Shown one piece after another: positions 33,944-35,887 of a DNA stretch of 64,000 nt. The notes below the pieces were generated by a model. The model saw only the letters and a list, made by a program, of their open reading frames with translations, was not told the origin of the DNA and ran no database searches. Numbering within the stretch: the first letter of the stretch is position 1; each line of letters starts with the position of its first letter. The stretch comes from Escherichia phage JLBYU32, in the sequence record OK272490.1; one strand, 5' to 3'. The position numbers and the translations under genes are program-made.

Positions 33944-33987
33944 AATGACCTCAAAGTTATATTAAATTTTGTATTACATTGAGTATA

Positions 33988-34016
33988 AAAATAAGCTATA
34001 ACACCTGACTTGTCAA
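33988..34016 (-). promoter_or_regulatory. candidate minus-strand promoter with operator-like 10-bp inverted repeat
   Basis: On minus strand TTGACA (plus 34011-34016) then 17 nt then TATTTT; perfect inverted repeat ATAAGCTATA (33991-34000) / TATAGCTTAT (34024-34033) brackets the -35. Confidence 0.35.
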
Positions 34017-34053
34017 CAGACTTTATAGCTTATTTGGCAGATTTTTTATAAGG

Positions 34054-34320
34054 CTACTGCCATCCTTCCATACCCTACCTTACCACACCTAACCATACCT
34101 AACCAAACTACACCATACAATACCTTGTTAAAAGACCCTATTTAAAGACCTTTTAAAAAGGTAAGTCTCATTTTAATGTAGCTGAGACTAACTACCCATA
34201 CCGAACAACACCGCGCTATACCTTAGCCCACCTCACCGAGCCTCGCCCCACATCACTTAAAAACCCTCTTAGAAGACTCTTAAGTGATGTAATCGGATTT
34301 TTATGTAGCTCCGATTAACT
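34054..34320. repeat. Repeat cassette copy 1: CA-rich (GGT-rich on minus strand) degenerate tandem repeats plus conserved box and hairpins
   Basis: ccatacc/cctaacc/ccaaacc units; conserved aaaagaccctNtttaaagaccttttaaaaagg; hairpins agtctca-ttttaatgtagc-tgagact and aatcgga-tttttatgtagc-tccgatt. Confidence 0.6.
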
Positions 34321-34445
34321 ACCCATACCAAGCCTAACCTGACCGCACCAAACCTTACAACACCACACCATACCTGACCATACCAAACCTCATTAAAAGA
34401 CCCTGTTTAAAGACCTTTTAAAAAGGAGCCTCCGAAGAGGCTACC
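34321..34445. repeat. Repeat cassette partial copy with alternative GC hairpin
   Basis: CA-rich units then same conserved box then hairpin gagcctc-cgaa-gaggctc; as minus-strand hairpin plus T-tract it sits just downstream of the stop of gene 34454-34894. Confidence 0.55.
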
Positions 34446-34453
34446 TAGTCAAC

Positions 34454-34894
34454 TTAGAAAGGTTTTCTACGTTGCTTGTTAATGTTAGCTTTCATAGCAG
34501 CTAAATGGTTTTGCTGTTCAATCAGTCGTGAACGTTCTTGATGGCTAAGTGCCATAGTGTTCACATTCTCAATCGCTTGAGTGGCTTGCTTTAAAGCCCG
34601 ACCAATCTTACCAGACATTTTACGTTTTGCAATAGTTGCTTGATGTTTAGGTTCAACCACACGATAACCAACACCCATTGAAGCAACCAGATAAATCTTC
34701 TCTTCTTTAAGAAGCTTTTCAATAAACTTCTCAAGTCGGTTTAGACGTGTAAGTGCATAAGCCTTCATTTCATCTTCGTACTTAACAATGTCGCCTTGAT
34801 AAGTTGGCTTCACAATACCTAAGAAGGTATCCATCTCAGAATGTGATACAGTGTCACCGTAACTAAACTTTGCTGCTAATGCTTTTGTATTCAT
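34454..34894 (-). CDS. hypothetical protein (flanked by repeat cassettes)
   Basis: 146 aa ORF. Confidence 0.4.
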   Translation of the reverse strand: MNTKALAAKFSYGDTVSHSEMDTFLGIVKPTYQGDIVKYEDEMKAYALTRLNRLEKFIEKLLKEEKIYLVASMGVGYRVVEPKHQATIAKRKMSGKIGRALKQATQAIENVNTMALSHQERSRLIEQQNHLAAMKANINKQRRKPF

Positions 34895-34896
34895 AA

Positions 34897-35499
34897 TTAA
34901 ACGTTACCTTCTGAAATAACTTCTACAGAAAAACGACCAAAGCGTGGACGCCAATCACCTACACCGCAAAGGTTACCAGCATTTTCCAGAACCATCAAGA
35001 GTTCTTCTTTGGTGATTTGCTCTTCATCGAACATCAAACCGAACTCTACAGACCAGTCACGGAAGATTGGGCGGTAGCTCATAACTCGTGCTGTACCAAT
35101 CTTAACAGACTTAGCATAGATAAAGTCTGGATTCTTAGCGAGTTCTTGTGGGTTTGCTGGGCAGTTCTTGATAGTCATTGGGAAGACTACATCTGTCAGC
35201 ATAATGGCTCGGTCAATTACCTTACCAAGTTTGTTGAGTTTTGCACCAGACTTGATACAAGCCTCAATCATCTCACCGTTCATAACAAAACCTAGTTGCT
35301 CATCGTAGTAACAAGAAGTTACCAGTTGGCTTTCTGCTAAGAGCGCATAGTCTTCGTCAGTCTTTTTACGTTTACTGGACAGAGACTTGTGATATTTTGT
35401 CAGAGGGTTTAATGGGTCTGACAACGTATCAGCGTGGCTCAGGAAAGGACGAGTACCAGTGATTTTGATATTTAACAGTTTCATAGCATTTAGCTCCAC
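34897..35499 (-). CDS. hypothetical protein (flanked by repeat cassettes)
   Basis: 200 aa ORF. Confidence 0.4.
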
Positions 35500-35574
35500 A
35501 CTTTAGTTTATTGTTAAGTTGTTTGTAAAGAACCCTCAACAGAAGACTCTTTAGAAACTTGGTAGATTTTTAAC

Positions 35575-35840
35575 GTGGCTACTACCATCCACCCATACCA
35601 GACCTAACCACACCTCACCCCACCTGACCCATACCTCACATTACCATACCAAACCAGACCCCACCTCATTAAAAGACCCTCTTAAAGACCTTTTAAAAAG
35701 GTAAGTCTCATTTTAATGTAGCTGAGACTAACTACCCGCACCTTACCAAACCACACCATACACCACCGAACCGAACCAAACACTACCTTACCGGACATCA
35801 CTTAAAACCCTTTTAAAAGACTCTTAAGTGATGCTGGTGA
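35575..35840. repeat. Repeat cassette copy 2, near-identical core to copy 1
   Basis: Same CA-rich units, identical box and gtaagtctcattttaatgtagctgagactaactaccc hairpin, and tcacttaa...ttaagtga inverted repeat. Confidence 0.6.
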
Positions 35841-35887
35841 GTACCCGTTGGTTTATGATGCTCAGTATACTCACCAAATTTTCTATG

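Follow-up and report, generated by a model that had tools for sequence, protein, structure and literature searches.

Escherichia phage JLBYU32, a Felix O1-like phage, very probably carries a complete VIPR system of type II, SUSP1 clade

The closest described relatives of the element considered here are systems named VIPR, for Viral Interference Programmable Repeat, which were described in two 2026 bioRxiv preprints from the Doudna laboratory (10.64898/2026.04.26.720920; structures in 10.64898/2026.04.26.720927), with the locus of phage SUSP1 as the representative (10.64898/2026.04.26.720920). The element itself lies within positions 33944-35900 of a stretch of 64,000 nucleotides from Escherichia phage JLBYU32 (OK272490.1; the whole stretch is hereafter called the window), where five repeat modules on the minus strand, which is the gene strand, flank genes for proteins of 195 and 146 amino acids (aa). 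According to these preprints, Vipr is a minimal, early-branching member of the RAMP proteins, and vipr and an accessory gene (vap) are flanked by guide RNAs termed vrRNAs, each of which consists of 9-16 YNNGG repeats and an invariant 3′ tail that forms a pseudoknot in the SUSP1 clade (10.64898/2026.04.26.720920). They also state that Vipr forms a polymer on the RNA, in which the protomers sequester GGY and leave NN exposed (10.64898/2026.04.26.720920, 10.64898/2026.04.26.720927), and that NN reads double-stranded DNA with one skipped base per unit, the binding of which silences transcription (10.64898/2026.04.26.720920). For SUSP1, discrete vrRNAs of ~100 nt, their co-purification with Vipr and reprogrammable DNA silencing are reported there as shown, and the guides of this clade are said to target mostly a satellite phage in E. 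coli genomes (10.64898/2026.04.26.720920).

In JLBYU32, a Felix O1-like myovirus (Felixounavirus, Ounavirinae), the region very probably holds a type II VIPR system that is complete and falls within the SUSP1 clade. The characteristic features found by computation are a RAMP gene with a vap neighbor, YNNGG tracts, a predicted pseudoknot tail, sense orientation and skip-1 targets. The likeness to SUSP1 extends to a Vipr that is 98.5% identical, the same vap1, identical vrRNA tails (SUSP1 locus L152), the same kind of GGY/NN guides, vrRNAs upstream and an array downstream of the genes, and guides aimed at E. coli satellites with a 1-nt skip. By comparison, JLBYU32 belongs to the genus Felixounavirus and shares ~90% DNA identity with SUSP1 in this region, and it has two upstream vrRNAs instead of one (five in all), other guide sequences and one register break. 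Being a known kind of system in an essentially known clade, the locus is already known and embodies no new principle.

Other machineries resemble VIPR in part. The class 1 CRISPR proteins Cas7, Csm3 and Cmr4 share with it the RAMP fold with a G-rich loop, the use of one protomer per fixed length of guide, and a variable guide capped by a conserved structured handle. VIPR differs in its period of 5 rather than 6, in a non-contiguous guide of which 2 of every 5 nt are informative, in its single small RAMP without Cas5, Cas6, Cas10, Cas11, cas1-cas2 or a protospacer adjacent motif, and in being phage-encoded and silencing rather than cleaving. No CRISPR array (identical repeats, contiguous spacers) is found at the JLBYU32 locus, which has one RAMP gene and one small helical partner. 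The TRAP protein of Bacillus is likewise an oligomeric protein that reads a conserved triplet with spacers of 2-3 nt on single-stranded RNA; in the trp leader of B. subtilis it binds 11 (G/U)AG repeats. It is, however, a closed 11-mer ring of unrelated fold; the spacers between its triplets are uninformative, and it serves to attenuate its own operon rather than to recognize foreign DNA. In T4-type phages, variable open reading frames (ORFs) are reportedly flanked by promoter-early stem-loop (PeSL) repeats, an arrangement ascribed to Arbiol et al. in 2010. Here too, short repeated promoter/stem-loop modules flank accessory genes and recombination explains their gain and loss, but a PeSL is a cis-acting promoter plus stem-loop with no pentamer tract, dedicated RNA-binding protein or targeting information. 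The RNA anti-CRISPRs (Racrs; PMC10651486) are also small phage RNAs related to CRISPR-type ribonucleoproteins and serve in conflict between elements; they mimic host CRISPR repeats and poison host Cas complexes, whereas VIPR RNAs guide the phage's own RAMP.

Each of the five modules consists of a tract of 10-14 pentamers, in which GGY is conserved and NN variable, followed by a conserved tail with the predicted form of a pseudoknot. A1 and A2 lie upstream of vipr-vap and B1-B3 downstream, all five in the same sense as the genes. The parts are as follows.

34897-35484, minus strand: vipr, 195-aa minimal RAMP (Cas7/Csm3-like); an alternative GTG start at 35499 gives 200 aa.
34454-34894, minus strand: vap1, ORF for a 146-aa accessory protein, mostly helical, with a G.GYR.V.P..Q motif.
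35704-35792, minus strand: vrRNA A1, 11 GGYNN units (35792-35738) and predicted pseudoknot tail (35737-35704); guide NN = AA AG TT TC TC GG AT GT TT AA GC.
35561-35665, minus strand: vrRNA A2, 14 units with a 1-nt insertion; tail GGGUGGAU GGUAG UAG CCAC ... CUACC.
34291-34389, minus strand: vrRNA B1, 13 units (34389-34325) and tail with stem AAUCGGA/UCCGAUU.
34164-34247, minus strand: vrRNA B2, 10 units (34247-34198), of which three have a degenerate GGY, and tail.
34036-34124, minus strand: vrRNA B3, 11 units (34124-34070) and tail GGAAGGAU GGCAG UAG CCUU ... CUGCC.
35669-35702, 34128-34161 and 34393-34426, minus strand: inter-vrRNA box, containing the palindrome ACCUUUUUAAAAGGU; it may be a 5′ flank or processing region.
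35796-35833, minus strand: Box2 palindrome/hairpin CAUCACUUAA...UUAAGUGAUG, upstream of vrRNA A1.
34250-34290, minus strand: second copy of Box2, upstream of vrRNA B2.

An earlier note, made from the sequence of the window alone, had drawn attention to this region, and the features that it described, including the two minus-strand ORFs between the repeats, were recovered where it had placed them and nowhere else in the 64 kb. A scan of the whole window reveals a period-5 CC/GG signal solely at 34054-34398 and 35579-35781, and the conserved 20-nt box TTAAAGACCTTTTAAAAAGG occurs in exactly three copies (34142, 34407, 35682), where shuffled sequences lead one to expect 0.01. The note had spoken of two near-identical elements of about 260 bp. 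This is correct for the tails and boxes, which are nearly invariant, but the two copies (~280 nt) show 83% column identity when aligned, one tract has extra units, and the tracts keep little beyond the GGT of each unit. Its heptamer-like repeat unit (ccatacc) gave way to a strict pentamer, GGYNN. Among 30 related loci taken from IMG/VR and GenBank, all of which possess the tail hairpin, the pentamer tract and the box in variable numbers, the tract lengths differ by multiples of 5 nt only (57/62/67/72/77/82 and 69...109). In the 715 units of 63 unique tracts the first position is G in 85%, the second is G in 98% and the third is a pyrimidine in 100%, while positions 4 and 5 are unconstrained and near-random. 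In JLBYU32 the register is broken in A2, where one extra G within 35626-35634 (minus strand; GGTAT-G-GGTCA) breaks the 5-nt frame halfway through the 14-unit tract; the resulting length of 78 falls outside the 5n+2 series (57/62/67/72/77/82) which all relatives follow. The guide could be dead or naturally split, or the extra G could stem from a sequencing error.

On the gene strand, the tail can be written as GG-S1-(AU/UU)-S2-L2-S1′-A-rich loop-S2′, and all five tails fit a predicted H-type pseudoknot. S1 is GUAG/CUAC, AAGG/CCUU or GUGG/CCAC, and S2 is AGUCUCA/UGAGACU, AAUCGGA/UCCGAUU, GGCAG/CUGCC or GGUAG/CUACC. The earlier note had observed the pairs AGTCTCA/TGAGACT and AATCGGA/TCCGATT around a shared loop and had noticed that the stems covary. 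These pairs are present and the covariation is real, S1 and S2 covarying between module types with all parsed variants but one fully paired in silico; the shared loop is also there, although it is really the S1′ arm of a second, 4-bp stem plus the A-rich loop. A frequent variant of S2 pairs as G.U when read on the minus strand, where the plus strand has an A.C mismatch instead. Since this intermediate pairs on the minus strand only, function is placed in a minus-strand RNA, and the note's reading of the hairpins on that strand is borne out. A search of Rfam 15 gave no match in the element at E≤1, nor in eight homologous arrays at E≤0.1.

The association between the repeats and the RAMP gene was established blind, before the VIPR preprints were found. 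Scanning IMG/VR for the pattern (ACCNN)6ACC alone yields over 120 stretches, and the phages they come from are very diverse. Of the 111 non-Felix loci found in this manner, 35 encode a protein homologous to the 195-aa one, and all but one of these 35 have their tracts in GGT sense relative to the gene, mostly 24-150 nt away from it. The reciprocal set comprises 71 loci for which similarity of the protein was the sole criterion (36-48% identity, 40-65% GC). Tested with strict GGT units it was positive in only 5/69 loci, an apparent failure, but high-GC relatives use GGC/GGY units, and the test was therefore redone with GG at period 5. Sense-strand arrays of this kind (chains of at least seven units) then appear beside the two-gene operon in 64/71 loci, against antisense chains in only 2/71. 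The arrays contain up to seven tracts spaced ~110-140 nt apart and lie either immediately upstream of the RAMP gene or immediately downstream of the partner gene.

Further tract architectures were seen in the course of these scans. Two jumbo-phage contigs, IMGVR_UViG_3300029288_001872 (189 kb) and IMGVR_UViG_3300014204_000113 (188 kb), contain many dispersed GGYNN tracts, and several of those inspected adjoin a hairpin on their 3′ side in GGY sense. A Vipr homolog is present in the latter (L079, of stretches L078-L082), and none was found in stretches L043-L046 of the former. These may represent one of the other array architectures which the preprint mentions. In viral contigs L052, L054, L056 and L069, the tracts abut a tRNA-like 3′ half (…GGTTCGATTCCTTAGTAGGGAGC) beside a Vipr homolog.

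The AlphaFold2 model of Vipr, built from 44 sequences, has a pLDDT of 95.9, and its Foldseek matches in the PDB are Csm3/Cas7. As modeled, the protein would possess the single RRM core, G-loop and thumb of a small (~20 kDa) RAMP. It is 98.5% identical to the phiSUSP1 and SUSP2 proteins over 100% of its length and belongs to a large family (520 matches) in phages of Proteobacteria and Actinobacteria. The start of vap1 lies 2 nt past the vipr stop codon, the gene shares 95% nucleotide identity with SUSP1 locus L010, and its product gave a model with a pLDDT of 68. A homolog follows directly after the RAMP gene in Pseudomonas phage Medea1 (28% identity, E 3e-13), where the pair forms an accessory island within the tail genes, and the same downstream partner is found in other loci with RAMP homologs. 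Neither protein has a match in Pfam, NCBIfam or PADLOC, and in PHROGs both are recorded only as being of unknown function; in the preprint the gene is named vap1 and DNA binding is predicted for it (bioRxiv 10.64898/2026.04.26.720920). Two GenBank records with other host names also contain Felix O1-like sequence: GU169904.1 (Staphylococcus phage SA1), with a 100% identical Vipr, and MG065664.1 (Campylobacter phage A132), with a 95.5% match to the flanking region; both are probably chimeric or mislabeled.

When 5,426 complete E. coli genomes were searched with the locus by sensitive blastn, an unannotated, vrRNA-like sequence of ~90 nt came to light in 152 chromosomes; the sensitive mode was needed, a megablast search of the same genomes having found nothing. 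This sequence resides in chromosomal islands of ~11 kb with tape-measure and baseplate genes as well as genes for serine recombinases, a "transposase" and an HNH endonuclease. The insertion site is either the interval from ymdF to wrbA or a DUF72 gene close to yecN. These islands fit the satellite described in the preprint; strains M19, S40 and 503025 are examples of E. coli that bear one. The satellites have no detectable Vipr homolog, and their first gene, the target of guide B1, is unrelated to Vipr. Their tract plus tail (15031-15106 in L225) is 76-82% identical to vrRNA A2 and lies in a ~2-kb unannotated stretch.

When the guides of the window were scanned against six satellites, with 200 unit-order shuffles per guide as the control, three of them gave the following scores.

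A1: best skip-1 match 20/22; best of 200 shuffles 18; skips 0, 2 and 3 give 15-16.
B1: best skip-1 match 23/26; best of 200 shuffles 20; skips 0, 2 and 3 give 17-20.
B3: best skip-1 match 21/22; best of 200 shuffles 18; skips 0, 2 and 3 give 16-17.

Thus 0/200 shuffles reach the score of any of the three, and the other skip rules remain at chance. The A1 target is located inside the HNH gene of the satellite of E. coli S40 (L230, +14689; 14689-14720). B1 matches the first coding sequence of two satellites (L229, -14028; L230, -14061, covering 14061-14098), with the skipped base on the codon wobble position. The B3 target (L228, +13599; 13599-13630) coincides in part with the extended -10 (TGcTAGTAT) of a promoter, TTGACA-17-TAGTAT, which lies ~50 nt upstream of the first gene in the satellite; a filament bound there would block initiation. 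The rule also holds for the clade: when 51 unique guides from Felix-like loci were compared with three satellites, 17/51 reached at least 85% NN identity with a skip of 1, one of them at 100%, whereas skips of 0, 2 and 3 yielded 0, 0 and 1. No self-target was found within the window, where the best self-match is at most 80% and not above chance.

Every gene around the locus is on the minus strand, and among the neighbors are the replication genes for ligase, DHFR and thymidylate synthase, which form a cluster. Matches to the region, with identities of 80-99%, are found in 230-256 phage records. In the direction of transcription, the order is DNA ligase, a 62-aa ORF, promoter P1, repeat region A, the 195-aa ORF, the 146-aa ORF, a terminator-like hairpin, repeat region B, promoter P2 and a 127-aa gene, with the following coordinates for the parts not yet listed.

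36076-37212, minus strand: DNA ligase gene.
35864-35891, minus strand: predicted promoter P1, sigma-70-type, near-consensus, TTGACA-16-TATACT.
34427-34442, minus strand: intrinsic-terminator-like hairpin, AGCCUC-UUCG-GAGGCU plus U-run, directly 3′ of vap1.
33988-34016, minus strand: predicted promoter P2, TTGACA-17-TATTTT.
33560-33943, minus strand: 127-aa gene, downstream of P2.

P1 would drive the upstream vrRNAs and vipr-vap, and P2, which is conserved in all relatives compared, is predicted to restore transcription of the 127-aa gene. The -10 of P1 is enclosed by an 8-bp stem, 35836-35843 / 35868-35875 (GGTGAGTA/TACTCACC); at the equivalent site of phage Michonne (L029, 3775-3830) a different but equivalent stem, CCTGACGGG/CCCGTCAGG, encloses the -10, which suggests that the promoter-hairpin arrangement is conserved independently of VIPR. 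The segment between ligase and P1 (35888-36076) is filled by the 62-aa basic ORF (phrog_5428, function unknown). In relatives this segment is ~150-180 nt long or missing ("P1-153/180" vs "P1-2/3"), and phage KhF3 has a different insert there, annotated as "possible binding site of StbAB." Elsewhere, at 39677-39832 (minus strand), there is a weak Rfam match to a group I intron (24.3 bits vs a gathering score of 50, E 0.0076), and relatives carry HNH homing endonuclease genes near the DNA polymerase gene, around this match. The Felix O1 genome paper and the Bas63 essentiality screen are silent on this locus.

The earlier note had suggested a recombination-prone or mobile cassette and had proposed comparing syntenic relatives for the presence or absence of the two-gene block; this comparison was run and was positive. 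The 195-aa protein occurs in 129 phage records, whereas the flanks are shared by 256. Felix O1 and about half of the genus are without vipr-vap and keep one or two modules between P1 and P2. Felix O1 has nothing but P2-tail-tract-box2-P1, a span of 282 nt, to separate its 127-aa gene from ligase, while some phages have two modules and no two-gene block. In other genera of the Ounavirinae everything is missing at this site: Mooglevirus Michonne and Sf16 and Suspvirus PC79-13 have no tract there, only the promoter with its hairpin. Yet Moogle, SUSP1 and SUSP2, also of other genera, carry a protein that is 98.5-99.5% identical (99.5% in Moogle). This pattern indicates that the modules belong with the two genes and not with the phage backbone, and the gain and loss of the block fit recombination between the flanking modules. 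Orphan modules, which were located in Felix O1 (L028, 2233-2400) and in L008, L012, L013, L020 and L026, are not clearly more decayed than the others (intact GGY 79.5% vs 81-90% in vipr-bearing phages), and some orphan guides match satellites at 86-88% (L020, L008).

By analogy with SUSP1, the system would operate as follows. Host RNA polymerase would start at P1 and transcribe two upstream guide RNAs, vipr, vap1 and three downstream guide RNAs, each vrRNA being presumed to consist of 10-14 GGY-NN pentamers capped by the conserved 3′ pseudoknot tail. Vipr, as a minimal Cas7-like RAMP, would polymerise along the vrRNA with one protomer per pentamer, holding GGY and exposing NN; the exposed NN would recognize double-stranded DNA, passing over one base after each pair, (NNx)n, and transcription would be blocked by the bound filament. 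At least three guides appear to aim at the ~11-kb E. coli satellites, one of them at the -10 of the satellite's main promoter, and the system thus most likely serves, during infection, to silence an element that parasitizes the phage. What was shown here, by computation, is the RAMP fold, the link between gene and repeats, the anatomy of the units, the covariation of the pseudoknot and the skip-1 target matches.

Four other explanations were weighed against VIPR. The earlier note had favored cis-regulatory cassettes, in which a terminator hairpin plus leader sets the boundaries of transcription and the GGT repeats are protein-binding DNA sites. Consensus P1 and P2 and one terminator-like hairpin with a T-run do bracket the block, UACCUUUUU follows the tails, and the modules lie in 5′ and 3′ untranslated regions. 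Of the T-tracts which the note saw after its hairpins, one genuine case stands, the terminator-like hairpin and T-run after the operon (34442-34427); the reading of the modules themselves as terminators plus leaders does not, these being better understood as trans-acting guide RNAs of the RAMP gene whose NN spell targets elsewhere. GGYNN arrays accompany distant RAMP homologs in phages of 40-65% GC, and this same-sense co-occurrence in very different phages speaks against the cis-acting view, protein binding to GGT-rich DNA included. Moreover, variation is confined to the NN positions, the NN strings match foreign DNA under one specific skip rule, and other Ounavirinae express the same flanking genes without the modules. 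This explanation is largely refuted already and we consider it very improbable. We attach an equally slight probability to the idea that the repeats are purely a recombination substrate, which mobilizes or deletes the two-gene cassette and has no RNA function. It would account for the polymorphism of the block (129 vs 256 records), for the remnant in Felix O1, which is the expected leftover of exchange between flanking modules, and for the nearly identical protein in Moogle, a member of another genus; it leaves unexplained the GGY/NN pattern, the covariation of the pseudoknot, the strict sense orientation and the target matches, and recombination is better regarded as a secondary feature that VIPR arrays have.

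That Vipr binds the tracts of its own mRNA and thereby acts on termination, stability or translation, as TRAP does, with DNA targeting being incidental, is an improbable reading in spite of the position of the tracts in the 5′ and 3′ untranslated regions of the vipr-vap transcript, beside hairpins and U-runs, and of a periodic triplet-plus-spacer layout that resembles TRAP-bound repeats. Such autoregulation needs no information in NN, yet NN match satellite DNA far above shuffles and with skip 1 only, and the preprint reports discrete ~100-nt RNAs and reprogrammable DNA silencing (10.64898/2026.04.26.720920). It could coexist as a side effect. A function at the level of DNA seems extremely improbable, whether the tracts are taken for an origin of R-loop replication, for an array of RNA polymerase pauses (G-10/T-3/G+1 recurring every 5 nt) or for a two-tier G-quadruplex. 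The tracts have a strong GC skew and lie inside a replication gene cluster, and the spacing of the consensus pause fits a period-5 G; against this, sister genera possess the same replication genes but not the element, unrelated temperate phages have it in tail-gene islands to which it has moved together with the RAMP gene, and the stem variant with G.U on the minus strand only argues for RNA, so that in practice this explanation is superseded by the VIPR evidence. The pause arrays (elemental or sigma-70), R-loop origin, G-quadruplexes and TRAP-like leader were dropped, as were a Rho rut site on plus-strand RNA, a boxB-boxA-boxC-like antiterminator (GGGUCUUUUAACAA resembling boxA) and Chi/RecA-preferred GT-rich recombination hotspots, because they leave unexplained why sister genera lack the element, why it is so strictly tied to RAMP homologs and why NN carry information.

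Several observations weigh against the VIPR interpretation or restrict it. The published evidence for VIPR consists of two 2026 preprints, and ribonucleoprotein formation, the filament, DNA binding and silencing come from experiments with SUSP1, so that the same behavior in JLBYU32 is inferred. The scans covered 6 of the 152 satellite-bearing genomes. In these six satellites A2 and B2 have no target above chance, and both may be inactive, A2 through its 1-nt register break and B2 through its three degenerate GGY units. The base skipped in the A1 target is on codon position 1, not the wobble position, and exact-pattern scans of IMG/VR for A1 and B1 targets found none. Finally, the orphan vrRNA modules without vipr are unexplained by a strict model in which a guide needs its own Vipr.

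One proposal, which we regard as speculative and rather unlikely, would join these orphans to the recombination data: the tails and boxes would be recombination handles that re-arm the arrays, orphans would work in trans or as decoys, and satellites would exploit Vipr. Exchange at the conserved tails and boxes may duplicate, delete and swap guides and the vipr-vap block between co-infecting phages, which, if true, would be a Cas1-independent re-arming of VIPR arrays. Orphan vrRNAs may then not be dead scars and may act with Vipr from a co-infecting phage, or as decoys; satellites with a vrRNA-like sequence and no detectable vipr would, if this is true, exploit the helper's Vipr likewise.

VIPR is a newly reported form of RNA-guided DNA recognition, which employs a gapped code of two of every five nucleotides and a minimal RAMP filament, and which has been proposed as an ancestor of CRISPR effectors. 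The window provides a clean, complete natural example of it, recovered independently from the sequence alone, together with a computational confirmation, independent of the preprints, that repeats and gene are associated and that the 1-nt skip rule holds, and with concrete predicted targets for three guides, one of which lies on the -10 of a satellite promoter. It also bears on the evolution of the arrays, through 5-nt length polymorphism, loss of the block leaving orphan guides, and absence from sister genera. For annotation, GGYNN tracts beside an unannotated gene of ~190 aa should be labeled VIPR rather than "repeat_region" and "hypothetical protein." The orphan vrRNAs, the 5-nt polymorphism and modular shuffling, the register-broken guide and the promoter-overlapping target may go beyond the preprint; these additions leave unchanged the verdict that the system is already known. 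The biology of the locus is remarkable but not new, with three of its five guides matching E. coli satellite elements.

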